Shown piece after piece: positions 3,798 through 47,039 of a DNA stretch of 48,595 bases (positions are counted from its first letter, which is position 1; the number at the start of each line of letters is the position of its first letter). The DNA is from a virus (taxonomy: Duplodnaviria; Caudoviricetes), in the IMG/VR virus record IMGVR_UViG_3300044931_000080, positions 1 through 48,595 of that record. One strand, written 5' to 3'. The translations under genes and the position numbers were made by a program. The notes under the pieces were generated by a model, which saw only the letters and a list, made by a program, of their open reading frames with translations, was not told where the DNA came from and ran no database searches.

Positions 3798-3854
3798 AGA
3801 AGGCCCCCACCTGGTGCAACAGGTGAGGGCCAGACGATCCCGAAAGGAATCAAC

Positions 3855-28829: not shown

Positions 28830-28898
28830 ATGATCGACTACAGCACTGAGGTTGGCCAGATGCGCCTCCTCCTGTGTCCGTGCTCGACGGTAGAATAG
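28830..28898 (+). pseudogene. Orphaned original 5' end of head-tail adaptor gene
   Basis: GGAGGGGG RBS + MIDYSTEVGQMRLL aligns ungapped to INYTDDSGRVRLL of the gene at 29589. Confidence 0.75.
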
Positions 28899-28981
28899 GA
28901 CACGCAACCGAATAGAACGGCCCGCCAGGAGACGGCAATCTCCGGACGGGCCTCACCAAGCCCAACTGTTCAGGAGTTGAG
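28873..28981 (+). promoter_or_regulatory. PafBC-like promoter and structured leader of HNH-1
   Basis: TGTCCG-N10-TAGAAT; hairpin with CGGCAA loop; CAACT/AGTTG hairpin over RBS. Confidence 0.65.
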
Positions 28982-29596
28982 ATGGCTACCAAGAATCGTA
29001 CCTGCACAATCGACGGCTGCGACAAAGAAGCGGAGCGCCGAGAGTGGTGCAACACCCACTGCTTGCGGTGGAGGCGCAACGGAGATCCGGTTGCAGGACG
29101 GCGACCCCAGGCAAGCGCGTCACTGGACCCGATCGACCGACTCCGCCACCACGGATGGGATGTCACCGAAACAGGGTGCTGGGAGTGGCGAGGATCAACC
29201 AGCTCCAGCGGGTACGGGCAAGTTCGGATCGGTTACAAGCTCTACGCTGCGCACCGCGTCATGTATGAACACGCAGTCGGGCCTATTGAAGACGGTATGC
29301 ACATCCTCCACTCGTGTGACAACCCGCCATGTCTCAACCCGGCGCACCTGCGTAGTGGAACGCACACAGACAACATGCGTGACATGTCCTCCAAAGGGCG
29401 CCGCCGACCGGACAGCGTTCTTCCTCGCGGGTCTCAGCACGCGAACGCGATCCTCACCGAAGAACTCGTGATTGATCTGCGCACTGAACGTCGGGGAGGG
29501 ATGACGTACAAGCAGCTTGCTGCGAAGTACGGGGTTGCATTCTCTACGGTCGCGGACATCGTCAAACGGAAGAAGTGGAGGCACGTCGGTGGCTAA
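28982..29596 (+). CDS. HNH homing endonuclease 1 (C-terminal HTH)
   Basis: CWEW, AHRV.Y, HSCDNPPCLNPAHL..GT..DN. Confidence 0.93.
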   Translation: MATKNRTCTIDGCDKEAERREWCNTHCLRWRRNGDPVAGRRPQASASLDPIDRLRHHGWDVTETGCWEWRGSTSSSGYGQVRIGYKLYAAHRVMYEHAVGPIEDGMHILHSCDNPPCLNPAHLRSGTHTDNMRDMSSKGRRRPDSVLPRGSQHANAILTEELVIDLRTERRGGMTYKQLAAKYGVAFSTVADIVKRKKWRHVGG

Positions 29597-29960
29597 AGCG
29601 ATCAACTACACCGATGACTCTGGCCGGGTCAGACTTCTCATTGCCGACACGGATGTCGACAACCTAGTCCTGGACGATGAGCAGATCCTCGGGTTCCTCG
29701 AGATCCATGGGGGCAACGTCAAGCGTGCTGCTGCGGCGGCACTCGACACGATCGCCTCGTCTGAGGCGCTGCTGTCGAAGAAGATCCGCACGCAGGACCG
29801 TCAGACCGATGGGCCTGCGGTGGCGGATGCTCTGCGTGCTCATGCTCGTGCTTTGCGGGATGAGGCGGACGGTGAGGATCAGGTGGAGGAGGAGTCGTTC
29901 TTCCTCCTGACCGAGCCGCTCCTGCCGACGCGAGTCGAGGGGGAGGAATGGCGCCGCTGA
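29589..29960 (+). CDS. Head-tail adaptor/connector
   Basis: VRLLIADTD...DEQI..FL...AAA.ALD.IA; first structural gene after capsid. Confidence 0.8.
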   Translation: MAKAINYTDDSGRVRLLIADTDVDNLVLDDEQILGFLEIHGGNVKRAAAAALDTIASSEALLSKKIRTQDRQTDGPAVADALRAHARALRDEADGEDQVEEESFFLLTEPLLPTRVEGEEWRR

Positions 29961-30370
29961 GCACCACCCGCATCATGCCGGACAACTGGTCGGAGCATCA
30001 CAGGCCAGCGGCGGAGGGGTTCCTCACAGGCACTTGCGATGCGCGGCGGGCGGATCGGGCTGGTGGCCCTGAGGGGATCATCTACGGCACCCCAGTGTGG
30101 GACGAGAAGCCGTGCAGTGCGCAGTTCCTGTCCCAGTCCGCGAGGCCTGTCGTGGTCGTGGACAGCACTGAGGTGCAGGTGACCCACCGCGTCTCGGTAC
30201 CGATCCATCTCACGGATCTGGGGTACCGCGACGTCATCACCATCACCGCGAACCCGGACGACCCCCGCCTGAACGGAGCTGTCCTGACAGTGGTGACGGT
30301 GGAGTCGGGGACGACGAACTGGACCAGAGACCTCGCCTGCGTCGAACAGAACCGGAGGCGACATGAGTGA
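29948..30370 (+). CDS. Head closure/stopper (DUF6093-like)
   Basis: Synteny and beta-rich 140 aa. Confidence 0.7.
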   Translation: MAPLSTTRIMPDNWSEHHRPAAEGFLTGTCDARRADRAGGPEGIIYGTPVWDEKPCSAQFLSQSARPVVVVDSTEVQVTHRVSVPIHLTDLGYRDVITITANPDDPRLNGAVLTVVTVESGTTNWTRDLACVEQNRRRHE

Positions 30371-30710
30371 TGACCTGAGGGCGTTCGCAACAGACCTCCG
30401 CAAGACCAGCGCGAAGGCCCAGAACATGGCCCGCCAGGCCGTGGCGAAGACCGCTGCCGACATCACCAGCGATGCGAAGGTGTACGCACCCGTCCGCACC
30501 GGCAACCTACGGGCGAGCATCGGCCACGACCTCACCGAGACGAATGGCGTGGTGGAGGCTGAGATCGGACCCACGGTGAGTTACGCGCACTTCCTCGAGC
30601 ACGGGACGAGTCGGATGGCGCCCCGCCCGTTCCTCGGGCCCGCGTTCGACCGGCGCGCACCCAACCTCGAGAAAGCCATGAGCATGCTCCTTGACGGGAC
30701 CGTCGGATGA
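30363..30710 (+). CDS. HK97 gp10-like neck protein
   Basis: APVRTGNLRASI, YA.FLE.GTSRM..RPFL.PA. Confidence 0.92.
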   Translation: MSDDLRAFATDLRKTSAKAQNMARQAVAKTAADITSDAKVYAPVRTGNLRASIGHDLTETNGVVEAEIGPTVSYAHFLEHGTSRMAPRPFLGPAFDRRAPNLEKAMSMLLDGTVG

Positions 30711-31111
30711 CGACCGAAGAACTGGTCGCCCACCTCATCAACCGGCTCGGTCTCACGGGGGCGCTCGTCTACGACGGGCACGTCCCCGACCAGATACCCA
30801 CGTTCCCCGGCACCGCGATCATCCGCCCGTACATGGTCATCTGGGCGATGCCCACCAGGGAAGGCGAGGAGCAGGACCTGGCGTACTCGCACCAGAACTC
30901 CCGCTCCGACCTCACCATCACCGTCGCCGCCGGCTCCGTCGAGACCGTCCGTCATCACTCTCAGCAGGCGATTGGGCTCCTGCACCGGCAGACCCTCCCC
31001 GGTGGTGGGGAGCTGCGGCACACAGACCCCCACGTGGCTGTTCAGTGGGACGAGACCGTCACCCCAGGACGCTTCTACCAGCCACTCGCCTTCATGCTCC
31101 TGCAGCCGTAA
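30707..31111 (+). CDS. Tail terminator protein
   Basis: VYDG.VP...PY.V motif and synteny. Confidence 0.75.
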   Translation: MTTEELVAHLINRLGLTGALVYDGHVPDQIPTFPGTAIIRPYMVIWAMPTREGEEQDLAYSHQNSRSDLTITVAAGSVETVRHHSQQAIGLLHRQTLPGGGELRHTDPHVAVQWDETVTPGRFYQPLAFMLLQP

Positions 31112-31129
31112 ACCCTCCTGCCCCGCTCT

Positions 31130-31163
31130 GGCCCTCACGAACGTCGTGGGGGCCTTCGTCATT
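31130..31163 (+). terminator. Hairpin/attenuator-like element
   Basis: GGCCCTCACGA-ACG-TCGTGGGGGCC then TTCGTCATT. Confidence 0.5.
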
Positions 31164-31178
31164 CACGAAGGGAAACCC

Positions 31179-31370
31179 ATGCCCGACAAGTTCATCGAGG
31201 CCATCGACACACGGACGGGACAGAAGATGCGCGTCCCCTCCCAGTGGCCCAGCCTCTTCCCCCACATCAAGGCACGCAAGCACCACCGACCGGACCAGCC
31301 CAAGACCGTCCAGGTCACCGAGCCGCGTCCCCAGATCCCCACCCTCAAGAACGAACCGAAGGAGTCCTGA
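31179..31370 (+). CDS. Small hypothetical protein
   Basis: GAAGGG RBS; precedes major tail gene. Confidence 0.6.
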   Translation: MPDKFIEAIDTRTGQKMRVPSQWPSLFPHIKARKHHRPDQPKTVQVTEPRPQIPTLKNEPKES

Positions 31371-31371
31371 A

Positions 31372-31914
31372 ATGCCTCTCTCACTCGCTGATGGAAAGGT
31401 CAAGGTCGCAGTCCTGTCGACTCGACCCGCCAACCCCTCCGCTCCCACCGTCGCGGAGCTGGACGCTGGAATCCAGGCCTCGTGCCGAATCGCCAGCCAG
31501 GACTGGAACGTGGGCCCTGCGGCCTCCGAGACAGTCGATGAGAAGCCGCTGTGCCGCGAAGGAAACGTGCAGGCGCTCGGCCCAAGCAACTTCACGGCGG
31601 AGTTCACCGTGTTCCGGTACTTCACCGAGGAGGGGCAGCCCGAAACCGGTGAGGACGACACCGAGGAAGGCATTGGAGATGCCCTCTACCAGGCGGTGAA
31701 GACCAAGGGTGCGCGTCTGTACATCTACGAGCGCGAGACCTCCCGGAAGTCCCTGGCGGATTGGGCTGCTGATGACGAGGTGAGCGGGTACGAGATCCTG
31801 CTCGACAACCCTCAGAAGCCGGGAGACCAGGGCGGCTACATCAAGCGTCGCGTGGTCGGGCTCGTGCAGGATGCGTGGCTCGACGCCAAGGTCGCAGCCG
31901 GCACCGGCGGCTGA
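31372..31914 (+). CDS. Major tail (tube) protein
   Basis: APTVAEL.AG motif, LC, synteny. Confidence 0.88.
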   Translation: MPLSLADGKVKVAVLSTRPANPSAPTVAELDAGIQASCRIASQDWNVGPAASETVDEKPLCREGNVQALGPSNFTAEFTVFRYFTEEGQPETGEDDTEEGIGDALYQAVKTKGARLYIYERETSRKSLADWAADDEVSGYEILLDNPQKPGDQGGYIKRRVVGLVQDAWLDAKVAAGTGG

Positions 31915-31925
31915 CCCTGACAACT

Positions 31926-31971
31926 CCTGTGCGGCATGCTCTTCCATGCCACGGGCGGCATGCCGCACAGG
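31926..31971 (+). terminator. 14-bp stem hairpin after major tail gene
   Basis: CCTGTGCGGCATGC-N18-GCATGCCGCACAGG. Confidence 0.55.
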
Positions 31972-31980
31972 TCCACATCT

Positions 31981-32075
31981 TGTGTCCGTGGCGTTCGATA
32001 TGATGGTCGGACAATCGAAGAGCCCCCGCGCTGCGCTAACAGCCGGGGGTGTGGCCGAGTATGGAGGTACTCGAC
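31981..32075 (+). promoter_or_regulatory. PafBC-like promoter and structured leader of HNH-2
   Basis: TGTCCG-N10-TATGAT; hairpin with CGCTAA loop; CGAGTA-TGGAGG-TACTCG RBS hairpin. Confidence 0.65.
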
Positions 32076-32633
32076 ATGTCCAAGCGTACCTGTTCAATCG
32101 ACGAGTGCGAGTCGGCTGTGCGCTCCCGCGGCGCATGCGTCCGGCATTACGCGCTGATGCTCTCCCCGGATGAGGCGGCAGAACTGCAAGCAAGCGTTCG
32201 CGACCGGTTCTGGGCGAAGGTCGATCAGTCCGGCGAATGCTGGACCTGGACCGCTGCGCGCTATCGGAACGGGTACGGCGCATTCCGGGGATTCGACGGT
32301 CGCGTCACAACCGCTCACCGGTTTTCCTATAGCACCGAAGTGGAGGACATCCCGGATGAGCAGCACATCGACCACCTCTGCGGCTCGCGCGATTGCGTTC
32401 GGCCCGCCCACCTGAGAGCAGTAACGCCGAAGCAGAACATCGAGCACCGCGTAACCCTAAACGCGAACAACCGGAGCGGATACCGGGGCGTGTACTTCTC
32501 CAACGGGCGGTGGTGGGTGAAGGTGCGTGACCACTACCAGGCCCACTACCGGGGCGGCTTCATGACCTTGGAAGAGGCCAACGAAGCGGCCATTTCGCTC
32601 CGCCAGGAACTGTTCACACACTCGCGAGACTGA
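32076..32633 (+). CDS. HNH homing endonuclease 2 (C-terminal AP2 domain)
   Basis: RFWAKV, CW.W, AHRFSY, DHLC...CVRP.HL; NRSGYRGV...W...F.T.EEA AP2. Confidence 0.93.
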   Translation: MSKRTCSIDECESAVRSRGACVRHYALMLSPDEAAELQASVRDRFWAKVDQSGECWTWTAARYRNGYGAFRGFDGRVTTAHRFSYSTEVEDIPDEQHIDHLCGSRDCVRPAHLRAVTPKQNIEHRVTLNANNRSGYRGVYFSNGRWWVKVRDHYQAHYRGGFMTLEEANEAAISLRQELFTHSRD

Positions 32634-32700
32634 TCAATCAATAGCAATGGGAAGCCCTCACAGCCGTGGGGGCTTCCGCCATTCAAGAAGGAGAAAGCCC

Positions 32701-33351
32701 GTGGCCGAAGACGATATGTTCAGCAGCTCTCCTGTCGACCCAGCCGATGGGGACTGGTTTTCGCAGTGGCTCGAGACCGGCACCGTCGCCCAGCGCAGCG
32801 TCCCCATCTACGGGCGCCCGGATCTGTTCGCGAAGTACGAAGACCTCGAGCGCCGACGGCAGATCGCCGCGGAAGTCGACCAGGAAGAGCGCAGCCTGGG
32901 GGACTCGTCCCTGGCGGACATCGACGAGGAGATCAACGCCCTCTACAAGCAATGGCAGGCGTCCAAGACCGTCTGGTACATCCGCGCCCTGCAGCCCGAC
33001 GAGATCGATCAGGCCCGGGATGAGGTGAACTTCCCGGACGAGCCGAAGCCGGCGGAGGGGGAGAAGGAACTCTCTGCTGAGGTGCGTCGAGAGTACGAGC
33101 GGGAGGCTGAGGCCGCGAACACGCGTGCGAACCAGATCTTCGTCGCCCGCTCCCTCGTGAAGATCGAGAACAGCCTGGGTGAGGTCGTCCGTGAGTCGAT
33201 CACCCCGGAGCAGGTGAAGGTGATGCGGGAGAAGCTGGGTGATCAGCAGATCCTCCGTCTGGTCGCGGCGGCGATGGTCGCGGCGACCCAGGAGGTTTCG
33301 ATCCCGGTCCCTTTCTCTCAGAGCAGCTCGAAGAGCGACCGCGCCTCGTAA
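32701..33351 (+). CDS. Tail assembly chaperone (gpG)
   Basis: Between tail tube and TMP; AAGGAG RBS; slippery site at 3' end. Confidence 0.85.
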   Translation: MAEDDMFSSSPVDPADGDWFSQWLETGTVAQRSVPIYGRPDLFAKYEDLERRRQIAAEVDQEERSLGDSSLADIDEEINALYKQWQASKTVWYIRALQPDEIDQARDEVNFPDEPKPAEGEKELSAEVRREYEREAEAANTRANQIFVARSLVKIENSLGEVVRESITPEQVKVMREKLGDQQILRLVAAAMVAATQEVSIPVPFSQSSSKSDRAS

Positions 33352-33668
33352 GGACGCTCAGGGCCGCACGCTCGTGGGGTGTGCGGCCCGGAGTGTTCGT
33401 GGAGGAGTGGCCTGAGAAGGACCGCCTGTTGGCTGAGGCGCTGACGCATTTCGAGGACACCGCGCACTGCAGTGGGTGTGGGCAGTTGAAGTCGAAGGCG
33501 TGGGATCCGGACAGCGCGTGGGAAGTCGGCACGGTGGAGTGCTACGCGTGCAAGTCACACCAGGACGACAAGACCGAGTCGAAGCCGGGTGAGTTGCGGT
33601 TCCTGTCGCTGGATGAGAAGTCGATGCGGATCGCGAAGGCCCGGAAGAAGGCCCGCGAAGGTCAGTAG
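33309..33668 (+). CDS. Tail assembly chaperone gpGT extension via -1 frameshift
   Basis: C CCT TTC heptamer at 33309-33315; -1 frame open into W..KDR.LA.A...CSGCG...CYAC. Confidence 0.85.
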   Translation, partial: PFLSEQLEERPRLVRTLRAARSWGVRPGVFVEEWPEKDRLLAEALTHFEDTAHCSGCGQLKSKAWDPDSAWEVGTVECYACKSHQDDKTESKPGELRFLSLDEKSMRIAKARKKAREGQ

Positions 33669-34084
33669 GTCCAGGCAGTGACGTTGACGTCCCCGTTCTC
33701 GTCCATGGTCACCCCGCAGTTGAAGCTGTCGCTCGTCGTCGATCGTCCCGATGCGTTCGGGTAGCGCGCCTCGCCAGACACCGCCCACATGGTCCCGGTG
33801 TCTCCGAGGTCTCTGAACTCGACATCGAACAGCTCGACCGGCTCATCGAGCCCCAGCTCGGCAGCGAGTTCGGCAGCGCACTCAAGCTCCACCGCCTCTT
33901 GAACCGTCATCGGAGTCTCTGTCGGCTCCGGTTCCGGTGCGGCAACGGGCTGGTTGGTGGCATTGGCCAGCCAGATCAGACCCCCTGCCAGCGCCAGCAC
34001 GGCGACGAACACGGCCACGACAGGCCACCACGACGTCTTCTTTTCAGGCGCGAGAGCGCTCTTGAACACCACGGGCTTTCCCAT
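33662..34084 (-). CDS. Reverse-oriented membrane-anchored moron protein
   Basis: Single N-terminal TM, PE linker, acidic ectodomain with two Cys; leaderless promoter. Confidence 0.8.
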   Translation of the reverse strand: MGKPVVFKSALAPEKKTSWWPVVAVFVAVLALAGGLIWLANATNQPVAAPEPEPTETPMTVQEAVELECAAELAAELGLDEPVELFDVEFRDLGDTGTMWAVSGEARYPNASGRSTTSDSFNCGVTMDENGDVNVTAWTY

Positions 34085-34090
34085 AGGCGA

Positions 34091-34114
34091 AGTATCCCAC
34101 GGGGTCCGGACACA
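34091..34114 (-). promoter_or_regulatory. PafBC-like leaderless promoter
   Basis: Minus strand TGTCCG(34112-34107)-N10-GATACT(34096-34091)-6 nt-ATG. Confidence 0.5.
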
Positions 34115-34143
34115 ACACGTTCTCAACACCTCAGGAGGTGGTC

Positions 34144-37100
34144 ATGGCTGATCGTTCTCTCGTGGTCCGCCTCCGTGCCGAGGTGAACCAGGCTGTCGCT
34201 GGCCTGGACAAGACGGCGACTGCCGCTGAGCGTGCCTCAGTCGCCGTCACCAAGACCGGGGATGCGTTCGAGAAGGCGTCCCGCCGCCAGCAGGACGCCG
34301 CGGGTCGTCTCCGTGTGGCTGAGGCCCAGTTGCTCGAGGTCCAGGGGAACAGCAACGCGAAGGCGTCACAGCTGGTCGCCGCTGAGGAGAAGGTCGCATC
34401 CGCCCGCCGTGAGGTTGCGGAGACGTCGCAGTCTGCGGCGAACGCTGAGCAGGTGCTGCAGCAGGCGATGGAGGACTCCACGCAGGCCGCGAAGGAGTCC
34501 GCCGCCGCGGCGAAGGAAGCAGCTGACGCGGCATCGAAGAACGAGACGGCGATTGCCAAGATGGCCCGCAACGCGGACGCCAACGCACAGGCATGGTCGA
34601 CCGCCGGCACGGTCCTTACCGCTGCTGGTGGGTCCATCGTCGCGCTCGGAGTGGCCGCTACGAAATCGGGCATCGAGTTCAACAGCCTCAACCAGACCGC
34701 GAAGGGCGCGCTCACCGCCGTCATGGGATCCGCAGCTGGTGCGGCTCGCCAGATGGAAAAGATGAACGAGTTCGGGCGCGGCACATGGGTCATGCGCGAC
34801 TCGCTCATCCGCGCCCAGCAGACCATGACTGGTTTCGGGATTGAGACCGAGAAGGTCATCCCCTACATGGATGCCCTCGCGGAGACTGTCGCTGCGACTA
34901 CTGGGTCGAACCAGGACTTCGAGGAGCTTGCCCGCGTCATGGGCAAGGTGGAGTCCTCGGGGAAGCTCACTGCGGAGACGTTCAATGAGTTCGGCACGCG
35001 TGGCGTGGACGCCGCGCAGCTCATCGGTGACGCCATGGGTATGACGGCCCAGGAAGTCCGTGACGCTGTAACCGAGGGCACCCTCGACGCTAGCGAGGCC
35101 CTCGACGCGCTCGCTGAGGGCATGAAGACACGGTTCGATGGTGCGACCGAGAACATGCGACAGACGTTCTCTGGCGCGTTCGCGAACGTGTACGCCGGAT
35201 TCCGCGACCTCTCTGCATCACTCGCTGAGCCGCTGGTCAGCAAGGAAGGCGGCGGGCTCCTGGTCGACGGGTTCAACACCCTCGCAGACAGCCTGAACGA
35301 GTTGCGGGACATCTCTGACAGCATCCCGGAGCCGGTGAAGATCGCGGCAGGCGCCGTAGGAGGACTCACCGCGGCAGCGTCCTTGGCCGCGGGCAGCTTC
35401 CTCCTCCTGGCGCCTCGCCTGTTGGAGACCCGGACCGCGTTCCAGACTCTCGCGGGCCAGGACGATCTCGTGGGCAAGTTCGCCACTGGGCTGGGCAAGG
35501 TCGGCCCCGCCGTCGCGAAGGCAGCAGCCGCTGTCGGTGCGGCTGTCGTCGCATGGCAGGCGCTCGACACGATCATCAACACGGCCACCAACCGGTCGGC
35601 TCCGAAGATCGAGAAGCTCTCTGCTGAGATGGAGGGCCTCGCTGCCCACGGGCGTGCCGCATCCGGTGCGCTCGAGCAGGCGTTCGGCGGGGGGTCCAAC
35701 AGCTGGCTGACCAACACTCTTCTTGGCACGACCGGTGCCGTCACCAACCTGGATGAGGCGTTCGGGGAACTCTCTCGCAACTCGGGGAAGATTGGTGAGG
35801 TCACGCTCGCCCTGCAGAAGGTCCGGCCTGGCAAGCAGGCTCTGGAACTCGCCACTGAGGGTGTAGCGGCGTACGACGACGCCCTGGTCCAGATGGCCGA
35901 AGGCGGGGCCTCCGACAAGGCGGCTGCCGCGTTCGACAAGATCGCGGACCGGCTGACCAGCCAGGGCCATGACATGGACTTCGTGGTCGAGAACTTCTCC
36001 GACTACGAGGATCTCCTCAAGTCGACCGCGGACACCCTCGACGTGACGGGTCTGTCTGCGGAGGACTACGCGAACTGGATGCGGGGCGAAGTCCCCGACG
36101 CTGTGCGCGAGGCGGCTGAGGCGAACGCGGAACTCGCGGACGGGCTCGCCGGTATCCCCCCGGTCGCGGAGGGCGCCGCAACCGGTGTGGCCACGCTGTC
36201 GGCTGAGGCGGTCGAGGCGCAGGACCAGCTCAACGAGATGTTCGAGCAGCTGTACGTCAGCTCGCAGGGCTTCGTCGATTTCGCGGAGAAGGCCGTCGAC
36301 GCTGACGTGTCTATGCGCGACTGGATCAAGTCGATGGAGGATCAGGTTGTCGCGCAGGAGACGTGGCACGAGAACCTGCAGAAGCTCATCGACCGTGGCG
36401 CACCGCAGCAGCTCATCGATCACTTCATCGAGCTGGGGTCTGAAGGCGCGTTCCGGGTGAAGCAGCTCGCGGACGGGTCCGAGGAGGACCTGAAGCGTGC
36501 CGGTGACGCGTTCGTGGACGTGAGCGAGCAGGCCGCGGGGTTCGCTGGCACGATCACGCAGATTCCGGACATCAACCTCGAGGCTGATGACACGACTCTG
36601 CGGTCTCAGTTGTGGTTCGCGGAGGAGGCACTGGCGGAGCTTCACCGGATGAAGCCGACCCCGGAGACGGATCTGAAGATCACGGCTCTGGAGGATCAGA
36701 TCCGGGTAGCGAAGGACCAGCTGGGCGACCTCGACAATGACGAGGCCCACCCGCTCGTGGGCGTGTCCGGTGCAGACGAGTCGCGGGGGAAGGTCGAGGG
36801 CGTCCACGACGCACTGGTCAATCTGCCGTCAGATGCGAAGTCGAAGGTCGACGTTGACGACGAGCCGGCCCGGTCGACCATGGAGCGGCTGTGGACGTGG
36901 ATCCGCGGCAAGACGATCTTCTTCAAGACCGATGAGCAGAAGGCCGCTGCGCAGGGCCGCAACTCGACCGGCACCGCAGGCTCGTCGTCGAAGTTCTCCA
37001 GTGGAGGGTCGGTGCGGGGCCCTGGCTCGGGCACGTCGGACGACATCCTCGCTCGCCTGTCCAACGGGGAGCACGTCTTCACTGCGGAGGAAGTGCGCCG

Positions 37101-40100: not shown

Positions 40101-40470
40101 GCAGCGCTACGGCGACGTCAGGGGTGCCCGCAGGTTCTGGGAGCGCAACAACTGGTACAAGGACGGCACCCGCAACGCCAAGAGTGGCTGGGCTGTCGTT
40201 GGTGAGGAAGGCCCCGAGCTGGTCAACCTCGGCGGGGGAGAGCGGATCGAATCGAACCGCAACACCCGCGCCGCCCTCGCAGCCAACAGGACGTTCATCT
40301 CCCCACAGGCAGCGGGCATCGACTACGACCGCCTCGCGAAGGCGCTCGGAGACGAAATGGCAAAGCGCCCTCAGGTCGTGCAGCACAACGATCTGTCGGA
40401 CATGTCAGAAACCCGTCTGATGAACAAGATCGCTACGCGGTCCACCGACGCGCTCCACATGTACTCGTAA
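34144..40470 (+). CDS. Tape measure protein with peptidase-like and lytic transglycosylase domains
   Basis: About 2100 aa Ala-rich; TSAYR..SYH..G.AVD...HYNHVH; ESGWNPNAQNPTSTAYGLFQFL. Confidence 0.95.
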   Translation: MADRSLVVRLRAEVNQAVAGLDKTATAAERASVAVTKTGDAFEKASRRQQDAAGRLRVAEAQLLEVQGNSNAKASQLVAAEEKVASARREVAETSQSAANAEQVLQQAMEDSTQAAKESAAAAKEAADAASKNETAIAKMARNADANAQAWSTAGTVLTAAGGSIVALGVAATKSGIEFNSLNQTAKGALTAVMGSAAGAARQMEKMNEFGRGTWVMRDSLIRAQQTMTGFGIETEKVIPYMDALAETVAATTGSNQDFEELARVMGKVESSGKLTAETFNEFGTRGVDAAQLIGDAMGMTAQEVRDAVTEGTLDASEALDALAEGMKTRFDGATENMRQTFSGAFANVYAGFRDLSASLAEPLVSKEGGGLLVDGFNTLADSLNELRDISDSIPEPVKIAAGAVGGLTAAASLAAGSFLLLAPRLLETRTAFQTLAGQDDLVGKFATGLGKVGPAVAKAAAAVGAAVVAWQALDTIINTATNRSAPKIEKLSAEMEGLAAHGRAASGALEQAFGGGSNSWLTNTLLGTTGAVTNLDEAFGELSRNSGKIGEVTLALQKVRPGKQALELATEGVAAYDDALVQMAEGGASDKAAAAFDKIADRLTSQGHDMDFVVENFSDYEDLLKSTADTLDVTGLSAEDYANWMRGEVPDAVREAAEANAELADGLAGIPPVAEGAATGVATLSAEAVEAQDQLNEMFEQLYVSSQGFVDFAEKAVDADVSMRDWIKSMEDQVVAQETWHENLQKLIDRGAPQQLIDHFIELGSEGAFRVKQLADGSEEDLKRAGDAFVDVSEQAAGFAGTITQIPDINLEADDTTLRSQLWFAEEALAELHRMKPTPETDLKITALEDQIRVAKDQLGDLDNDEAHPLVGVSGADESRGKVEGVHDALVNLPSDAKSKVDVDDEPARSTMERLWTWIRGKTIFFKTDEQKAAAQGRNSTGTAGSSSKFSSGGSVRGPGSGTSDDILARLSNGEHVFTAEEVRRMGGHSEVYRLRDQIMRGQVPAFATGGAVSSARGNLARAERDLERIQNRGRKVTAADRDREAAQKRVESARAALQRAEESERKRAEAARKEAERRTRVRELQSDLRTDVRRGSIRDQVTGSLSGGYSAVDRLFGLGQNEDLSRASRNTATNRARKFESDLRRLYGQAERVDEKLKAAQDKASELEGIQKSVSSGLLSGRELDMGDYMNFSGGQWTTHTGVAGATRRMTADVGRMKEFANKLQKLMKAGIPGAILQEIAGAGVDEGIALADAFLNASSSEQASYIGTWNEYEKQAQRIGNIVTGGFYDGGVDAAQGVVKGLESQQKSVEAQIARLAKTMEDTLKSVLGIRSPSRVMAELGAYTVEGLVQGMLSGQSDVTNAASLLAGAAIPNLRYDIDMTAAPVVDTDAMAAGTAMQDMSAITLGAMQSMRLAVSDGWTQMLTDTQAAQSGMLTDTTSKQFSMRDITAQQQEQMRAIVLGKQTESRTAVSTEQETMRRVMAEKQTQMRDKNRTEFESMRVTTGEKLTSMRSSADTTMVGFRGDYDSHMGSLKRINRDGHTSMEDASEVAFKGIRSGMNTQMREARPELGGRMNNLIDVLSKFTSSVNKAFKDVGVELDSPQKLAFATGGVMPGYTPGRDVHSFYSPTAGSLYLSGGEAIMRPEFTRAVGGERGVKELNDAARRGDHEHLDLAMHFADGGVIPSAPMRGVNAFADSGVWRGLWSIVKGAFPQSRLTSAYRGGSRTASGNQSYHSRGMAVDLAGRYSMDTSTMGQIASWLVGNYGNSNEIIYSPLNGRQVKNGRNYMYTGAVRGMHYNHVHWANRSVPGGATGGPSGAWDGDVWIPHPFLDKAGVSADGDLKAAYERAAKKQIKDIIGKHTGQLTGGDFSRQLGTGIMRATRDGLIKKATDYGELMGDGGIPGAANGPVKQMAREVLEKMGWGDQWSDLDWLVTKESGWNPNAQNPTSTAYGLFQFLNGTWGSVGASKTSDPLKQIQAGLKYIQQRYGDVRGARRFWERNNWYKDGTRNAKSGWAVVGEEGPELVNLGGGERIESNRNTRAALAANRTFISPQAAGIDYDRLAKALGDEMAKRPQVVQHNDLSDMSETRLMNKIATRSTDALHMYS

Positions 40471-40478
40471 GGAGAGCA

Positions 40479-41411
40479 ATGACAGCGACTCTGGAAGTTC
40501 CCGCGACTCCGCGCGGCATGTGGGTGTCCGTGGTCCTCCAATCTTCCGCAGGGCAGATCCCCCTGTGGGTGGGGGAGGACCACGGCGGGTTCCTCTTGAA
40601 AGACGGAGTGAGGGGTTTGGGGGTCGCCCCTATTGATCTGGAAACGACCCCCGCAGGCCGGCACGGAACAACCCTCCTCGCGAACCGTATGGATGAGGTG
40701 GAGATCGGGCTGCCGATCTCCATCAAGGGCCGGTCGCCGGAAGAGATCCACGACCTGCGGCAGCGACTCAACAACGTGCTGTTGCCTGGCCTGGATGAGC
40801 CGGTGGAGATTGTGGTGCAGACCCCCCACACGGGGGATTCGCGCACCCGGTACGGGCATCTGGTGTCGGGGCTTGAGGGCGCGTGGGGTGGATCGGATTC
40901 GCATTTCACGTGGTATCACACGGTTCTGGTGTTCCGGTGCCCGGATGTGTGGGCGTATGGGGCTGAGCGGTCTCGTGAGTGGGGCCTATCAACGGTCATC
41001 AAACCGTACTGGACTTCCTCCCCGCGCCTGCCTCACTACCCTGCGTGGCTGTCGTCCAGCACCGTCCTGGGGGAGTTCGAGTTCACGGTGTCCGGCGATT
41101 CCCCAACCTCACCCGTCTGGACGGTGACCCCGCCGGGTGAGGATCTGCTGATCCGCTGCGGCAACGGATGCGGAGACGAGATCTTCTTCGAAGGTGAGAT
41201 CACCGCCCCGCTGACGATCGACACCCGGACGGGTGAGATCACGATGCCGGGGATGACCCGGAGGCAGATCTGGGAGCGCATCCCCGAGGGTCGCGACCGG
41301 ATGTTCGATCTCCCTGCTGGGGAGAACAAAGTGCTGGTCAGCATGGTTGGTGCGCAGGGCACGTCCACGGTCCGACTGTCGTATCGGGAGAGATGGAAGG
41401 CGCAGCACTGA
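40479..41411 (+). CDS. Distal tail protein (Dit)
   Basis: First gene after TMP; GD.P..PVW...PG and L..GEN motifs. Confidence 0.8.
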   Translation: MTATLEVPATPRGMWVSVVLQSSAGQIPLWVGEDHGGFLLKDGVRGLGVAPIDLETTPAGRHGTTLLANRMDEVEIGLPISIKGRSPEEIHDLRQRLNNVLLPGLDEPVEIVVQTPHTGDSRTRYGHLVSGLEGAWGGSDSHFTWYHTVLVFRCPDVWAYGAERSREWGLSTVIKPYWTSSPRLPHYPAWLSSSTVLGEFEFTVSGDSPTSPVWTVTPPGEDLLIRCGNGCGDEIFFEGEITAPLTIDTRTGEITMPGMTRRQIWERIPEGRDRMFDLPAGENKVLVSMVGAQGTSTVRLSYRERWKAQH

Positions 41412-42535
41412 TGCGAGTACTGATGCGCGACACCGATCTTCTCCCTCTGGGGGAGTTGCGGGTGACGGATGTGCACGCCGTGGTCCGCAGGAACGACGTG
41501 AGCACATGGTCTGTGACGGTGAACGCTCGTCCGGGGGAGTCGTGGGAGGACTACACGGATGGGATGGGCGTCCTCATCGAGGACGAGCACACAACCATCA
41601 GTGGGCCGCACGTTGAGTGGGAGTTCGACCGTGACGGCGCCAAGCGGTTCCTGAAGCTGCGGGGTGTGGACGACAACACGATTCTGGCGGATCACATCAT
41701 CATCCCGGACCCATCCCGGCCTACTGACGATCAGCAGGTGGATGTGTGGCGGATGACGGGGCCTGCGGAGACGGTGATGCGGACTCTGGTCGATCAGCAG
41801 ATCGGCCCCAGCGCGCCCACTGATTACCGAGTCGATGGTTTGGTGTTGGAGCCGGATCAAGGGCGCGGCGGACAGGTGACGGTGAGCGCCCGCTACGACA
41901 ACCTGCTGGAAACCATGCAGGAGCTGGCAGAGACCGGGGGCGTCAACTTCCGGGTGGTTCAGGACGGCAGGCGTCTAGTGCTGCGGTTCCGTGAAGGCGA
42001 AGACCTGTCTAGGGCGGTCCGTTTGCAGGAAGAGCAAGGTGGGGTCACCAAGCTCAACTTGAAGCGGAAAGCCCCCACAGCGACTGAGGTCATCGTCGGC
42101 GGTAGCGGATCTGGGGCCACACGAAAGATGTGGCGAGACACCCAACCGACAACATGGCACCGCCGCGTCACCCAGTTCGTGGATCGCCCTTCAACATCTG
42201 ACCCGAACGAACTGCAGCAGGCGGCAGAGAAGGCCCTCGCGGATGGGCAGGAGTCGGTGTCCGTCACGTTCGAAACCGCAGACACCAGAACGATCAAGTT
42301 CGGGCGAGAGTACGACATCGGGGACACGATCACCCTCCAAGCTGACCTCGCGACGGTCACGGATGTGGTGCAGGTCGCGGACATTTCCCTACAGAACGGG
42401 TCGCGTCGCGCATCGGTTCAGGTGGGTCCGGTAGCGGATGAGTCGAAGCTCGCAGAAACCTCCCCCATCCCTGCCTTGCTGCGGAAGCGGCTGGCGGAGT
42501 TGTCACAGATGGTCCGCCGCAGGCAGACAGAGTAA
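41411..42535 (+). CDS. Baseplate hub / Gp37-like minor tail protein
   Basis: RRNDVSTW, VGG.G.G..R, FG.EY.IGD motifs. Confidence 0.85.
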   Translation: MRVLMRDTDLLPLGELRVTDVHAVVRRNDVSTWSVTVNARPGESWEDYTDGMGVLIEDEHTTISGPHVEWEFDRDGAKRFLKLRGVDDNTILADHIIIPDPSRPTDDQQVDVWRMTGPAETVMRTLVDQQIGPSAPTDYRVDGLVLEPDQGRGGQVTVSARYDNLLETMQELAETGGVNFRVVQDGRRLVLRFREGEDLSRAVRLQEEQGGVTKLNLKRKAPTATEVIVGGSGSGATRKMWRDTQPTTWHRRVTQFVDRPSTSDPNELQQAAEKALADGQESVSVTFETADTRTIKFGREYDIGDTITLQADLATVTDVVQVADISLQNGSRRASVQVGPVADESKLAETSPIPALLRKRLAELSQMVRRRQTE

Positions 42536-42546
42536 GGAGACCCACT

Positions 42547-43584
42547 ATGGCTACTCAGGCTGAGATCAACGCGTTCGTTGAGCAGATTATGCCGTACTTC
42601 AACCCGGCCCCGGTGGAGGAGGATGCGGTGCAGCAGTCGTGGCCGCGCCTCGATCGGGGTTTGTCGGATGTGCAGGACATGCAGCGGTTCCAGAACATGC
42701 ATGGGATCTTCGACGATGGCGGGTTCCCGTACAACCTCGTCCCTCACGCGACTGATGCGGAGACGAACCAGGCGAACACACTGTTCCTCACCGTTTCCAC
42801 TAAGACGGGGGCGGCGGGGGCGACTCTACGGGGGGCGTTCCACCGTCTGCGGGAGGACCTTGAGCTGGGGTTCCCTGCGGTGTCGTCTGCGACCACCTAC
42901 TACGTGGTGATCGAATACGACCCGGTACGCGCGGAGGATGGTGGCGACCCGCTTGAGGCGAAGGTCGTCACCGCCCTGAACTATTCGCAAGGCCGGGATT
43001 ACATCGTCCTATGGGAGCTGGACCGAAAGCCGTCCCAACTGCTGTCCGATGCGACTATCCGCCGTATCCGCCCTCGCGCTGTGGGCGTGATCTATGTGTG
43101 GGACGAGTCGCACAAGCCCGCTGCGGAAAGGCAGCCGTGGGGCACGCTGTGCGTGGTTGGTGCGACGGGCGCTATCTACCGGTCTACGACGGGCAACGAG
43201 GCTGGCGGGGATTCTGGTGAGCGGGCGTGGGTGCCGCTGACTGATGTCAGCCTGCGCGGCGACAACCAAGCGTACGAGTACGTCGGGCACGGCGCACGGA
43301 TCGGGTCCACCCGCATTGGCCAGATGGTTGTGATGGAGGGACGTGTGCGTCGCGTAGGGGGCGCATTGTTTTCGGGAGGTTCGACCGCTGGCTACCTGAT
43401 CCATATTCTTCCGGTGGGGCACCGGCCACCGACTGAGCGCAGGTTTATCGCGTCCGGCCCAGGGCTTACGAATAATCGGCGGGTCGCCGTCAGCGTCACC
43501 CCAGATGGTGAGGTGCGGGCATTTCCTGAGACGACTGTCGATTGGGTGAGCATCGACGGCTGTGTGTTCACGGTGGGGAGATAG
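42547..43584 (+). CDS. Minor tail / receptor-binding protein
   Basis: Synteny; C-terminal LP.G.RP...V...G.V tail-fibre-type domain. Confidence 0.75.
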   Translation: MATQAEINAFVEQIMPYFNPAPVEEDAVQQSWPRLDRGLSDVQDMQRFQNMHGIFDDGGFPYNLVPHATDAETNQANTLFLTVSTKTGAAGATLRGAFHRLREDLELGFPAVSSATTYYVVIEYDPVRAEDGGDPLEAKVVTALNYSQGRDYIVLWELDRKPSQLLSDATIRRIRPRAVGVIYVWDESHKPAAERQPWGTLCVVGATGAIYRSTTGNEAGGDSGERAWVPLTDVSLRGDNQAYEYVGHGARIGSTRIGQMVVMEGRVRRVGGALFSGGSTAGYLIHILPVGHRPPTERRFIASGPGLTNNRRVAVSVTPDGEVRAFPETTVDWVSIDGCVFTVGR

Positions 43585-43586
43585 TC

Positions 43587-44015
43587 ATGCCAACGCTCAT
43601 CGCGTGGCTGCGTGCCACGGACGCCGCGAAGTGGGCTGGCACCAGCATCATCGCGTGGGCTGGCCTCGCCTACATCATCCTGCCCCCGGTCTCCACTGTC
43701 GGTCTCTATAGTACGGCGTGGCCTGCCCGCGTGTGGGGGGCGATGATGCTCACCGGGGGTATCGTCACCCTGTACGGGCTGTGGTCGAGACTGATCGACT
43801 GGGAAAAGTTCGGGATGACTGTCGTGCTCGTCGGGGTTGCTTCCCTGACCGCGAATCAGGCCCTCCTCATGCTGGACTACCCGCCGACGTGGACGCGGCT
43901 GGGTGGGACGCTCGTCTACCTGGCGGGCACCGCGTGGGTGCTAGACCGCACTCTCCGACTGTCGTCCGACAAGCGCCTATCTGATGAGGCTGAGGCCCGA
44001 TACGAGGGGCGGTGA
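43587..44015 (+). CDS. Multi-pass membrane protein (lysis-associated)
   Basis: About four TM segments upstream of endolysin. Confidence 0.75.
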   Translation: MPTLIAWLRATDAAKWAGTSIIAWAGLAYIILPPVSTVGLYSTAWPARVWGAMMLTGGIVTLYGLWSRLIDWEKFGMTVVLVGVASLTANQALLMLDYPPTWTRLGGTLVYLAGTAWVLDRTLRLSSDKRLSDEAEARYEGR

Positions 44016-44018
44016 CGG

Positions 44019-44333
44019 GTGCACATTGATCCGCAGCCGGTCATATCGTTTCTGCTCGGTGGTGGTGGGGTGCTCATCGCCCGCGCACTGTGGGAGGTGC
44101 TGCTGGCCCGCAAAAAGGGACGTATCGCGCATGAGGACACGACCATCAGCCGGTACAAGTTTTTTGCGGACCAGGAGGCGGAGCGCCGCAGGGAGTCGGA
44201 GGCGGAGACCGCCCGTGCGGAGCGGGAGCTGCGCTGGTATCGGGCCCGATACGCCGCCCTGTGGCAGGCGCACTCCGCGGCGGGCCATGACGTGACCGCG
44301 CATCCGTTCGCCCCACCCCCAGACATCCACTGA
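44019..44333 (+). CDS. Single-TM coiled-coil protein (lysis-associated)
   Basis: LLGGGGV TM then coiled coil. Confidence 0.7.
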   Translation: MHIDPQPVISFLLGGGGVLIARALWEVLLARKKGRIAHEDTTISRYKFFADQEAERRRESEAETARAERELRWYRARYAALWQAHSAAGHDVTAHPFAPPPDIH

Positions 44334-44394
44334 CACCCACGACTATCCACGGCCTCGCCTATCAGGGCGGGGCCTACGCAATTCAGGAGGACGG

Positions 44395-45267
44395 ATGGCC
44401 CGCTACTGGCGTATGGCCCGATCGCTGGACAAGCTGCTGGCGCAGATCAACGCGTACGCCCCACGACGATCCAAGGTTTCAGACGGGGGGATCGGCGACG
44501 CCGCGCATTCTGCGCGCACGTCGGATCACAACCCGGACAGCCGTGGCATCGTCCATGCCCGCGACTTCACCCACGACCCGAAGGGCGGGTTCGACGCTCA
44601 CGCGTTCGTCCGCCGCCTCGCTAAGGCAGGCGACCGCCGCGTCAAGTACCTGATCAGCAATCGGCAGATCAGCAATCCATCGATCAGTGCCGGCCGGTGG
44701 CGGCCATATGCGGGCGTCAATCCGCACACGCAGCACGCGCACGTGTCCTGCGTGTACTCGAGCCTCGAGGACGACACGTCTCCGTGGCCAGGCCTCGGCA
44801 CCCCCACCCCCACGCCCGCCCCTACTCAGGAGGACGACATGAAGCGCATCCGCAACGGCTCGCATGACAAGCCGCAGGTGATCAAGCCCGGCAAGACGCT
44901 CAAGATCCGCACTAACCGCAACGGTGATTACTTCCTCGGCAACACGCGGAAGGGGCAGGTGATCAACACCGCGTACGCGATCGGTGTCACCGGCCTGCTG
45001 CAGGGTGAGAAGGCCCGCGTGCGTCGGGTGATCGACGACTACAACCCGAAGAAGAAGACGACGACCCGCCGCCACAACGGCCCGTTCCATGAGGTCCACG
45101 GTGTGGGGCAGGGCACCTACGTGCGCGGGCACGGCGTGTTCTTCGACGGCAGCTGTGGGTACGGCAAGCGTGGCGACGAGCAGCCCCGCCTCTACCTGGA
45201 GGTGGAGAACCTCGGTAAGTCCGACATCACTGTCACCTACGTCTGGTTCGACACGGAGGGGAACTGA
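44395..45267 (+). CDS. Endolysin (Zn peptidase M15-like N-domain)
   Basis: DG.IGDAAH..R.SDHNPD, HA.D, H..H.HVS; PT linker; GGAGG RBS. Confidence 0.85.
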   Translation: MARYWRMARSLDKLLAQINAYAPRRSKVSDGGIGDAAHSARTSDHNPDSRGIVHARDFTHDPKGGFDAHAFVRRLAKAGDRRVKYLISNRQISNPSISAGRWRPYAGVNPHTQHAHVSCVYSSLEDDTSPWPGLGTPTPTPAPTQEDDMKRIRNGSHDKPQVIKPGKTLKIRTNRNGDYFLGNTRKGQVINTAYAIGVTGLLQGEKARVRRVIDDYNPKKKTTTRRHNGPFHEVHGVGQGTYVRGHGVFFDGSCGYGKRGDEQPRLYLEVENLGKSDITVTYVWFDTEGN

Positions 45268-45268
45268 C

Positions 45269-45721
45269 ATGAGCAACCTGCTGACACGAGAGTTCATCGC
45301 CGCTACTGCTGAGCGTGCGGTGAAGACTGCGGCGCAGACCGCGATCGCTCTGATCGGTACCGAGCAGATCGGCATCCTGTCCCTGGATTGGGCGCAGATC
45401 GGGTCCGTGGTCGCCACCGCAACCGTCCTGTCGGTGCTGACCTCGATCGCCGGGGACACGACCAGCAAGAACGGGCCGTCGTTCGTCCGTGCTGAGGGCA
45501 TCGGGGTGGAGTCCGCGGAGGCTGAGGCGGCACTGCTGCGGGAGCGGACCCGCGACGCCGAAGGCCCCAGCTCGGAGGGCCCGGAGTACGAGGACTTCAC
45601 CGTGGTCGCGGGGGAGCCGACGAGCGACGAGACCGCCGACGAGGCTGTCGAGGATGACGAGTCTGAGGACGACCTCGATGAGTTCACGCGCTTGCGGGAT
45701 CGCCTCGACCCGGACGACTGA
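45269..45721 (+). CDS. Holin (r1t-like) with acidic tail
   Basis: ERAVKTAAQTAIA...DW...SVLTSIA motif. Confidence 0.9.
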   Translation: MSNLLTREFIAATAERAVKTAAQTAIALIGTEQIGILSLDWAQIGSVVATATVLSVLTSIAGDTTSKNGPSFVRAEGIGVESAEAEAALLRERTRDAEGPSSEGPEYEDFTVVAGEPTSDETADEAVEDDESEDDLDEFTRLRDRLDPDD

Positions 45722-45722
45722 C

Positions 45723-45806
45723 ATGCACACCTGCCCGCACTGCGGCCGCGAGTTTCTGTCGAGGCTCGCGGCCGCTGGCTGTTGCACGTATGACGAGGAG
45801 GACTGA
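45723..45806 (+). CDS. Tiny Zn-finger peptide (27 aa)
   Basis: MHTCPHCGREF...CC; TGATG coupling to next gene. Confidence 0.5.
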   Translation: MHTCPHCGREFLSRLAAAGCCTYDEED

Positions 45807-46255
45807 TGTTGGAGCCTGGTGTGATCGACCTCAATCTGGACGACCTCAGCGATGAGGAGCTGGCGGAGCTGGTGGAGGAGGCGCGGCGGAGGCTCGCGTC
45901 GCGGCAGGCGCGGGGTGCGATTGCGCGTGACCTGACGCTGGCTGTGGATCGCGTGATGAAGGCCAACCTCAACGTGATGATGGGGGCGGAGTGGGAGTCG
46001 GGGCGTGTGGTGTGGGATGGGGACACCATCACGATCACGACTCTCACCCCGGACGAGTACCTGGAGCTGGAGTTCCCGGATCCGGACCCGGAGCCTGACC
46101 CGGAACCGTCGGCTCGTGACTGGGTGGAGGGCATGAGTGTCGCGGTGGGTGATCTGGTCCGGTACGAGGGTGGCCTGTATCGGGTCGTGCAGGCGCATGT
46201 GACGCAGGCCGGGTGGCGGCCTGACGCGCTTCCGGCGTTGTACAAGCGGGAGTAA
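45806..46255 (+). CDS. Protein with C-terminal CBM5/12-like carbohydrate-binding domain
   Basis: W......VGD.V.Y.G..Y...QAH.TQ.GW.P...PALY. Confidence 0.8.
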   Translation: MLEPGVIDLNLDDLSDEELAELVEEARRRLASRQARGAIARDLTLAVDRVMKANLNVMMGAEWESGRVVWDGDTITITTLTPDEYLELEFPDPDPEPDPEPSARDWVEGMSVAVGDLVRYEGGLYRVVQAHVTQAGWRPDALPALYKRE

Positions 46256-46268
46256 GAGACACCAAATT

Positions 46269-46373
46269 CGGGGCCGTGTTCGGATACAATAGAAGCACAA
46301 TCGAATACGGCCCCGCCACGGTGCGTCAACACCACGGCGGGGCCTGACCAAGCCCAACTGTTGAGGAGTTGAG
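46269..46373 (+). promoter_or_regulatory. Promoter and structured leader of HNH-3
   Basis: TACAAT at 46285; hairpin with CGTCAA loop; RBS hairpin nearly identical to HNH-1. Confidence 0.65.
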
Positions 46374-47039
46374 ATGGCTACCAAGAAGCCTACCTGTAGC
46401 GAACCCGAATGCACCAAGAGCGTTGGCGCTCGCGGCCTTTGCTGGACGCACTACAAGCGTCTCCGGCGAGAAGGGCGGCTGACCCCCATGCGCGTCAAGG
46501 GCCGCACCTGCACTGTAGATGGGTGCAATGAGCCGCATGAAGCGCTCGGGTACTGCAACAGGCACTACTTGACGTATAAGCGCACCGGCGACCCGCTCCC
46601 AAAGCACGAGTGGGACCTGGCTGACAGGTTCCTCGACGTCGGGTGGGACGTGACCGACTCGGGCTGCTGGGAGTGGCGCGGCACCCGCGCCGTGGCTGGC
46701 TACGGCAGAATTAGCGCTTCCATGTGGGGCCTGCGCGACCGCTCCACTCACCGACTCAGTTACGAACTCTTCCACGGACCCATCCCAGACGGGCTGCTAA
46801 TCCGCCACAAGTGCGACAACCCTCCCTGCGTGAACCCTGACCACCTGGAGCCGGGGACGCATCAGGACAACATGAACGACATGGTGGCTCGAGGGCGGCA
46901 CTGGCGGCACGGCGGAACTCACTGCAAGCACGGACATGACATGACCGCCCCAGGGGCGCTACTCGACAGCGGAGGACGCCGGAGATGCAGGCTGTGCGTT
47001 CAGAGGCAGAACCGATCCAGGTCTACAAGCAAGGAGTGA
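46374..47039 (+). CDS. HNH homing endonuclease 3 (C-terminal Zn finger)
   Basis: Two N-terminal C..C...C..HY repeats, HKCDNPPCVNPDHL, THCKHGH...CRLC. Confidence 0.93.
   Translation: MATKKPTCSEPECTKSVGARGLCWTHYKRLRREGRLTPMRVKGRTCTVDGCNEPHEALGYCNRHYLTYKRTGDPLPKHEWDLADRFLDVGWDVTDSGCWEWRGTRAVAGYGRISASMWGLRDRSTHRLSYELFHGPIPDGLLIRHKCDNPPCVNPDHLEPGTHQDNMNDMVARGRHWRHGGTHCKHGHDMTAPGALLDSGGRRRCRLCVQRQNRSRSTSKE

Follow-up and report, generated by a model that had tools for sequence, protein, structure and literature searches.

Candidate SymR-type antisense RNA cassettes at the starts of HNH endonuclease genes in an actinobacterial phage

We describe three related leader cassettes in the virus record IMGVR_UViG_3300044931_000080 (Duplodnaviria; Caudoviricetes), a 48.6-kb provirus record whose full 48,595 nucleotides are referred to here as the window. 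The cassettes precede three genes, HNH1, HNH2, and HNH3, whose open reading frames (ORFs) all encode HNH_3 proteins and start at positions 28982, 32076, and 46374, among structural genes. An earlier note on this DNA had read the leaders as a structured, covarying element of the nuclease mRNA. Comparison of homologous sequences makes it quite probable that each cassette is the gene of a cis-antisense RNA, of the type represented by SymR and the counter-transcribed RNA (ctRNA) of IncQ plasmids, that keeps the nuclease quiet, with a damage promoter of the PafBC type at HNH1 and HNH2. Antisense control of the SymR/R1162 type is known, and what is likely new is a SymR-type antisense cassette on phage endonucleases. 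The predicted features are listed below by position in the window (SD, Shine-Dalgarno sequence).

28875..28896, plus strand: HNH1 sense promoter of the PafBC type, with a GTC element, 10 nt, and the -10 box TAGAAT; putative function
28906..28988, minus strand: predicted antisense RNA 1 (~83 nt), with an anti-SD hairpin, a terminator-like hairpin (28919-28952), and a U-rich tail that is the reverse complement of AACCGAA; start placed from the position of the -10 box
28982..29596, plus strand: HNH1 endonuclease ORF (204 aa), with a Cys-rich N-terminus, HNH_3, and a C-terminus resembling a helix-turn-helix
28995..29000, minus strand: antisense -10 box TACGAT, in codons 5-7 of HNH1
31983..32004, plus strand: HNH2 sense promoter of the PafBC type, with the -10 box TATGAT
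32013..32076, minus strand: predicted antisense RNA 2 (~64 nt), with an anti-SD hairpin (32054-32075), a terminator-like hairpin (32023-32049), and a U-rich tail
32076..32633, plus strand: HNH2 endonuclease ORF (185 aa), with a tail tube gene on one side and a tail assembly chaperone gene on the other
32083..32088, minus strand: antisense -10 box TACGCT, in codons 3-5 of HNH2
46285..46290, plus strand: HNH3 sense -10 box TACAAT, without a PafBC-type element
46299..46380, minus strand: predicted antisense RNA 3 (~82 nt), with an anti-SD hairpin, a terminator-like hairpin (46309-46344), and a U-rich tail
46374..47039, plus strand: HNH3 endonuclease ORF (221 aa), within the tail gene region
46387..46392, minus strand: antisense -10 box TAGGCT, in codons 5-7 of HNH3; hexamer and register shared with repA of the IncQ plasmid pDN1

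The motifs of the earlier note sit where it had placed them. The sense -10 boxes (28891, 31999, and 46285) are each followed by AAYCGAA (from 28906, 32013, and 46299), and the apical stems are GGAGA 28928-32/TCTCC 28939-43 with the loop CGGCAA at HNH1, GCTG 32030-33/CAGC 32040-43 with CGCTAA at HNH2, and GGTG 46320-23/CACC 46330-33 with CGTCAA at HNH3; second hairpins enclose the SD at 28961-81, 32054-75, and 46353-73. Read from the other strand, AAYCGAA is the reverse complement of the antisense U-rich tail. Folding gave z-scores against shuffled sequences of -2.55, -1.86, and -3.18 for HNH1, HNH2, and HNH3 on the plus strand and of -2.83, -2.86, and -4.54 on the minus strand, so that all three leaders are more stable on the minus strand, largely because A·C mismatches of the mRNA turn into G-U pairs there. 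The leaders of HNH1 and HNH3 are not independent examples, since they are 93% identical over 57 nt, with a near-identical 3' half.

Homologues were collected by four separate selections. Set 1, defined by a linker, SD, and ATGGCT pattern in viral contigs, gave 72 matches (63 unique, 61 of them past a lenient hairpin filter); set 2, defined by the stem pattern only and chosen regardless of upstream sequence, gave 113 (110 unique); set 3 comprised loci picked purely by HNH protein similarity; and set 4, drawn from metagenomes with a sense promoter plus stem pattern, gave 119 matches (114 unique), among them 66 hairpins, 31 of which had an SD and start. The set-4 pattern drew many chance matches (48/114 had no hairpin, and 35 of the 66 hairpins had no SD and start), and the lenient hairpin filters used for the register and strand counts of set 1 likewise admitted chance matches and diluted the signals. 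From the 63 set-1 members, 35 rows were hand-picked and aligned as antisense RNA to give alignment A4, in which 94% of cells are paired and two-sided changes number 58, against 17.3 in shuffles; just six variable pairs were counted, because the search pattern fixed one side of the basal pairs. At the level of sequence comparison, the covariation described by the earlier note is thereby confirmed, on the antisense strand.

The mismatches in these stems point the same way. In A4, read as antisense RNA, there are 22 G-U pairs and 3 A·C mismatches. A strand-neutral count of pairing over set 1 (n=61) gave mRNA-side A·C to G·T ratios of 76:25 for the long hairpin and 86:13 for the hairpin around the SD, compared with shuffled A·C fractions of 0.61 and 0.57 (excess p=0.002 and 9e-11, respectively), and a further count for the 5' anti-SD hairpin gave 161:63. 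Across set 2 (n=110), the three free stem pairs had 278 cells with Watson-Crick pairs, all four types being represented, and their mismatches on the mRNA were A·C in 52 cells and G·T in none. A T-tract is also one-sided: at least four T in the 8 nt 3' of the stem were found on the antisense side in 95/110 set-2 members and on the sense side in 2/110. The antisense strand thus has a two-hairpin fold that spans the start codon and the SD and ends, at its 3' side, in a terminator-like structure.

Two parts of the originally proposed structure did not hold up as conserved features. The CGNYAA hexaloop caps all three HNH leaders, but as an invariant loop it had to be rejected, being present in 9 of the 61 set-1 homologues; of the seven CGNYAA loops in the window that close at least four pairs, just three lie at HNH genes. 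The proposed pseudoknot between the loop and TGGC/TGAC has all four pairs possible in 28/87 homologues and shows no covariation, with loop base against linker base distributed as 21/30/12/12 (Fisher p=0.62).

The antisense strand also carries a candidate promoter within the coding sequence. Exactly one minus-strand TANNNT occurs within the first 26 bases of each HNH ORF, and those of HNH1 and HNH3 occupy +14 to +19, the exact register of E. coli symE/SymR and of IncQ repA. Among hairpin-bearing set-1 leaders, TA stands at coding position +18/19 in 36/56 and the full A+14..TA box in 26/56, as opposed to 27/305 and 12/305 control ORF starts; hairpin-less set-1 matches had the TA in 1/7. A -10 box lies within +4..+26 in 84 of the 94 set-2 members that have an SD and start, and 26 of the 31 such members of set 4 have one. 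In set 3, the wobble base before the zinc-ribbon Thr/Ile-Cys, a synonymous position that provides the T of the box, is T in 22/27 N-terminal ribbons preceded by a hairpin (a count that includes the window copies HNH2 and HNH3), compared with 0/5 ribbons without a hairpin and 0/6 internal ribbons (p=4e-6); 12 of the 50 set-3 rows were dropped because the codon does not begin with A. The four selections agree on an opposite-strand -10 sequence embedded in the target ORF, despite optimistic p-values. Many phage HNH proteins share a conserved 'KRT'-type motif at the N-terminus, which such a promoter constraint on the DNA would explain. A sigma-70 promoter and terminator scan, which demands a -35 box and at least 5 T in 8, was too strict for this DNA and reported neither a promoter nor any of these hairpins.

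The closest described counterparts are two antisense systems. No Rfam family matched the window at gathering thresholds. The model of the R1162 plasmid antisense RNA (RF00043) aligned to HNH1 over its full length with a weak score (36 bits, E 0.001, cut-off 55) and to homologues with up to 42.7 bits, still under the cut-off. For SymR (RF01809), the best homologue scored 34.4 bits, below the gathering threshold of 61, and HNH1 and HNH2 gave no match at E<=10. A covariance model built from phage cassettes only, R1, scored HNH3 at 55.9 bits, HNH1 at 51.5, the HNH leader of Arthrobacter phage Jinkies at 24.3, and HNH2 at 8.8, antisense RNA 2 resembling a stem subtype found among the stem-pattern homologues; outside phages, it recovered the pDN1 RNA (24.9 bits, E 4e-5) and, weakly but in the correct location and orientation, symR (14.4 bits, E 0.026). 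BLASTN with the HNH3 leader returned short weak matches only, and those inspected were not shown to be the cassette.

In E. coli, the leader of symE likewise combines a stem closed by a CGCCAA loop with a similar linker and a hairpin at the SD; the -10 of symR is at +14..+19, with symR annotated from symE +6. As predicted for the phage cassettes, the ~77-nt RNA covers the SD and start codon, an anti-SD hairpin is followed by a long hairpin, the CGCCAA loop lies on the mRNA side, and the sense promoter is tied to damage, symE being under LexA control (PMC1891008). When the symR -10 is silently mutated, SymR is lost and the amount of SymE protein increases more than sevenfold, whereas the effect on mRNA is about threefold (PMC1891008). 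Unlike symE, the targets here are HNH_3 endonucleases or a Bro-N antirepressor of an actinobacterial phage, and damage would be signalled through an activator, PafBC, in place of a repressor, LexA.

The resemblance to the R1162/IncQ RNA extends to the linker, the SD hairpin, and the start context, and the repA start of pDN1, whose RNA is a true RF00043 member (82.4 bits), has the same -10 register and hexamer as HNH3. That RNA is reportedly the plasmid copy-number regulator of Kim and Meyer (1986), as the Rfam listing has it; here, by contrast, phage nuclease genes would be controlled instead of plasmid replication, and no IncQ repA lies opposite. The RF00043 model matches the repA mRNA strand (L244:3371-3442), so that its seed was apparently entered in the orientation complementary to the antisense RNA. 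Two further families gave weak, non-significant alignments: PtaRNA1 (RF01811), which has a similar two-hairpin layout, to the pDN1 RNA (E 0.66), and phage P22 sar (RF00262) to the antisense strand of a homologue, L467 (E 0.9). Judged by sequence, the cassette would work like SymR and the R1162 RNA but belongs to neither family as Rfam defines them. The novelty claimed by the earlier note is reduced to that extent: the leader resembles the described RF00043 and the symE leader, with all matches below family thresholds. The literature searched, subscription papers and the supplementary candidate-RNA lists of large comparative screens aside, showed neither such an antisense cassette on phage HNH genes nor PafBC promoters before them, and either of those sources could already hold this motif.

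The sense promoters of HNH1 and HNH2 resemble those recognized by PafBC, for which the consensus is tGTCgg(N10)tA(N3)T (PMC8635444). Both read TGTCCG-N10-TANNNT and are the sole two strict matches in the window, in which the same strict pattern at spacings of 6-9 or 11-14 does not occur; the GTC triplet with 10-nt spacing to TA-N3-T is absent from HNH3. Among the 73 set-2 homologues with a sense -10 (drawn from 105 with enough flank), 19 have GTC at exactly -15, versus 1.6% at other offsets, and 13 of those 19 elements are perfect TGTCGG. The HNH1 and HNH2 copies differ by one base from the consensus (PMC8635444); they also differ from described PafBC promoters in standing on phage selfish genes and in facing an antisense promoter, and their activation is a prediction. 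We infer PafBC dependence of these two promoters from the match to the consensus, and DNA damage would therefore raise the mRNA above the antisense pool. Such dependence would link PafBC to the control of selfish phage genes.

In Arthrobacter phage Jinkies, gene 23 (L308:323-404) has a perfect TGTCGG-N10-TAGACT and the antisense fold before an HNH gene that is oriented opposite to the tail genes. Jinkies is a cultured phage, so the antisense and PafBC ideas are testable now.

Under the proposed mechanism, the minus-strand -10 in the first nuclease codons would drive an RNA of ~65-85 nt back over the ribosome site and the start codon. Contact with the mRNA may begin at the 5' hairpin of this RNA, which carries the anti-SD in its loop or next to it, and the long 3' hairpin and U-tract would end antisense transcription before the upstream structural genes. 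The sense strand, predicted to lack a terminator, would let late transcripts read through. Ribosomes would be kept from loading onto the paired nuclease mRNA, and repression would be mainly translational, as measured for SymR. At HNH1 and HNH2, an excess of mRNA after damage would then allow a burst of nuclease around prophage induction, so that PafBC and the antisense RNA would play in actinobacteria the part that LexA and SymR play for symE; some repression may also come from the sense SD hairpin, as it does in T-even endonucleases. Predicted duplex energies between the HNH1 and HNH3 RNAs and each other's targets (-116 to -123 kcal/mol, compared with -188 for self pairs, and much less with HNH2) suggest possible cross-talk between these two antisense RNAs.

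Such a mechanism would offer a concrete and cheaply testable answer to how prophages harmlessly carry nuclease genes that bear promoters, the toxicity of these nucleases being presumed from their assignment to the HNH family. A wider proposal, which we put forward tentatively and hold with rather less than even confidence, is that SymR, the IncQ RNA, and the phage leaders form one large and portable antisense family that homing endonucleases of actinobacterial phages have wired to the host's PafBC sensor of single-stranded DNA and damage. On that view, the nuclease would stay silent in lysogens until damage sets off induction and recombination repair, so that homing would be timed accordingly, and sequence-diverged cassettes would allow separate control of several nucleases in one genome. 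SymR, R1162, and perhaps PtaRNA1 would then be the tips of one widespread class missed by Rfam thresholds.

Several points weigh against the antisense interpretation. The antisense RNA, its start site, and the repression are all predicted from sequence, and every Rfam score lies under the family cut-off. The R1 match to symR is weak, and those to HNH1 and HNH3 arise partly by construction, since the linker pattern came from the window and the A4 rows were hand-picked. The p-values from homologues overstate independence because the members are related. The TA at +18/19 is missing in 20/56 set-1 leaders and the box in 10/94 set-2 members, and of the homologues that have a sense -10, about three quarters are without the PafBC element, as is HNH3. 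Folding is good on the sense strand too (z -1.9 to -3.2), with its second hairpin covering the SD, and a sense-strand contribution to control is possible.

The stability of that sense fold speaks for a functional structure in the mRNA, in which the 5' stem-loop and the SD-sequestering hairpin would lower or delay translation without any pseudoknot. Precedent exists in hairpins at the ribosome-binding site that regulate the T-even homing endonucleases I-TevI-III, as well as segB and mobE (PMC2988022), and these share with the phage cassettes a post-transcriptional restraint by structure at the ribosome site. The T-even hairpins, however, are elements of the mRNA itself, from which a late sense promoter embedded in them frees translation, and the consulted part of that source describes no antisense RNA regulator (PMC2988022). 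An mRNA structure also leaves unexplained the conserved embedded -10 and the one-sided U-tract, its mismatches are systematically A·C where the antisense strand has G-U, and the pseudoknot once assigned to it does not covary; we give it a small chance of being right. The translational switch restraining toxic nucleases that the earlier note had proposed thus survives as post-transcriptional restraint, which is most likely, and not as an mRNA switch, as the conserved fold fits the antisense strand. A slim chance, in our judgment, belongs to the idea that the embedded promoter works by convergent transcription, through interference or collision, with the hairpin only shielding the upstream structural genes and the RNA doing little. 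The same DNA signals (embedded -10, terminator, and U-tract) would be expected, and the opposed promoters are only ~100 bp apart, but interference has no need of the 5' anti-SD hairpin that is conserved as an antisense structure, and the effect of SymR on protein exceeds that on mRNA (PMC1891008).

The genes that follow the cassette bear on a different proposal, in which the HNH protein binds the RNA as its guide or cofactor. A family scan covered 59 of the 84 set-2 downstream proteins of at least 40 aa, those from loci with full flanks. It assigned 24 to the HNH family, 3 to Endonuclease VII, 2 to T5orf172/MUG113, 1 to NUMOD4, and 1, weakly, to LAGLIDADG; the rest included 3 Bro/ANT antirepressors, 1 Rep, 1 DDE transposase, 1 AAA, and 1 DUF6941, and no family was found for 21 of the 59 proteins scanned. 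Such an RNA would be HEARO- or omega-RNA-like. The share of HNH proteins and a partly conserved apical loop would suit such a role, yet the cassette also stands before Bro/ANT, Endonuclease VII, T5orf172/MUG113, Rep, and DDE transposase genes and before symE and repA, has no variable guide segment, and precedes, in the window, zinc-ribbon/HNH_3 proteins of ~200 aa. The nuclease-associated role that the earlier note had kept in view is unlikely, given that proteins unrelated to one another are preceded by this cassette, with no exclusive linkage to one nuclease family, and a guide or cofactor as such is very improbable. Nor is the leader specific to HNH genes, since homologues head other nucleases, antirepressors, Rep, and a transposase, and the window has a copy before its own Bro gene.

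3793..3872, minus strand: fourth copy of the cassette, before the Bro/antirepressor gene (ATG 3855), with two hairpins, a U-rich tail, the -10 box TACGAT (3867-3872), and the loop GTGCAA

This fourth copy, which the earlier note had overlooked, is a weak match to R1 (8.7 bits) and recalls the antisense control of antirepressors, as by P22 sar. Two other weak R1 matches in the window, at 12656-12730 and 10772-10851 (E 0.3-0.7), were rejected. Of 401 sampled actinobacterial genomes, 1 contained the exact stem pattern, and R1 matched in 8/151 genomes of one order, several of these matches being weak.

Further homologues stand before other kinds of genes. DDE-type transposase-like genes with the cassette and a PafBC-type promoter were seen at L324, L326, L352, L361, L383, L394, L398, L403, L409, L429, and L495 (Pfam assignment for L495 only), possibly a damage-inducible insertion sequence under antisense control. 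At L379 and L410, the same combination precedes ORFs whose N-termini give a TnpB/IS605-like impression, and at L100, L116, L120, L125, and L130 the cassette precedes small phage proteins with twin-arginine-like N-termini. A weak model match (14.8 bits) in Arthrobacter phage MargaretKali (L079:1853-1925), right after the terminal HNH gene, suggests an unannotated gene with the cassette.

The surroundings of HNH1 indicate how the cassette may move, and two further features mark its borders.

28830..28874, plus strand: stranded 5' remnant of the gene found after the capsid gene in relatives (putative head-tail adaptor), 15 codons with an SD, like the N-termini of intact homologues
29589..29960, plus strand: putative adaptor gene whose 5' end has been replaced and overlaps the stop codon of HNH1

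The remnant, which comes straight after the capsid gene, is the left edge of the HNH1 insertion, the cassette starts at the GTC element, and no HNH-motif ORF occurs in that region in the 10 distant relatives examined (of 28 non-identical loci). HNH1 is thus, by comparison with those 10 relatives, an optional insertion of the kind expected of a free-standing homing endonuclease, and its promoter, antisense gene, and nuclease appear to have come as one piece. The three HNH genes probably encode free-standing homing endonucleases and travel with their control unit. The recoded replacement start of the adaptor gene (29589-29650), supplied by HNH1, might protect the site from re-cutting.

The nearest relatives of the terminase and adaptor-like genes of the window are in Arthrobacter and Brevibacterium phages. 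The phage was also found in ant metagenome runs; RNA runs holding it are uninformative on strand and level because they consist of low-depth unstranded contigs. Strong hairpins at 31927-31970, after the tail-tube gene, and at 32655-32678, before the tail chaperone gene, bracket the HNH2 cassette and are possible terminators or processing sites.

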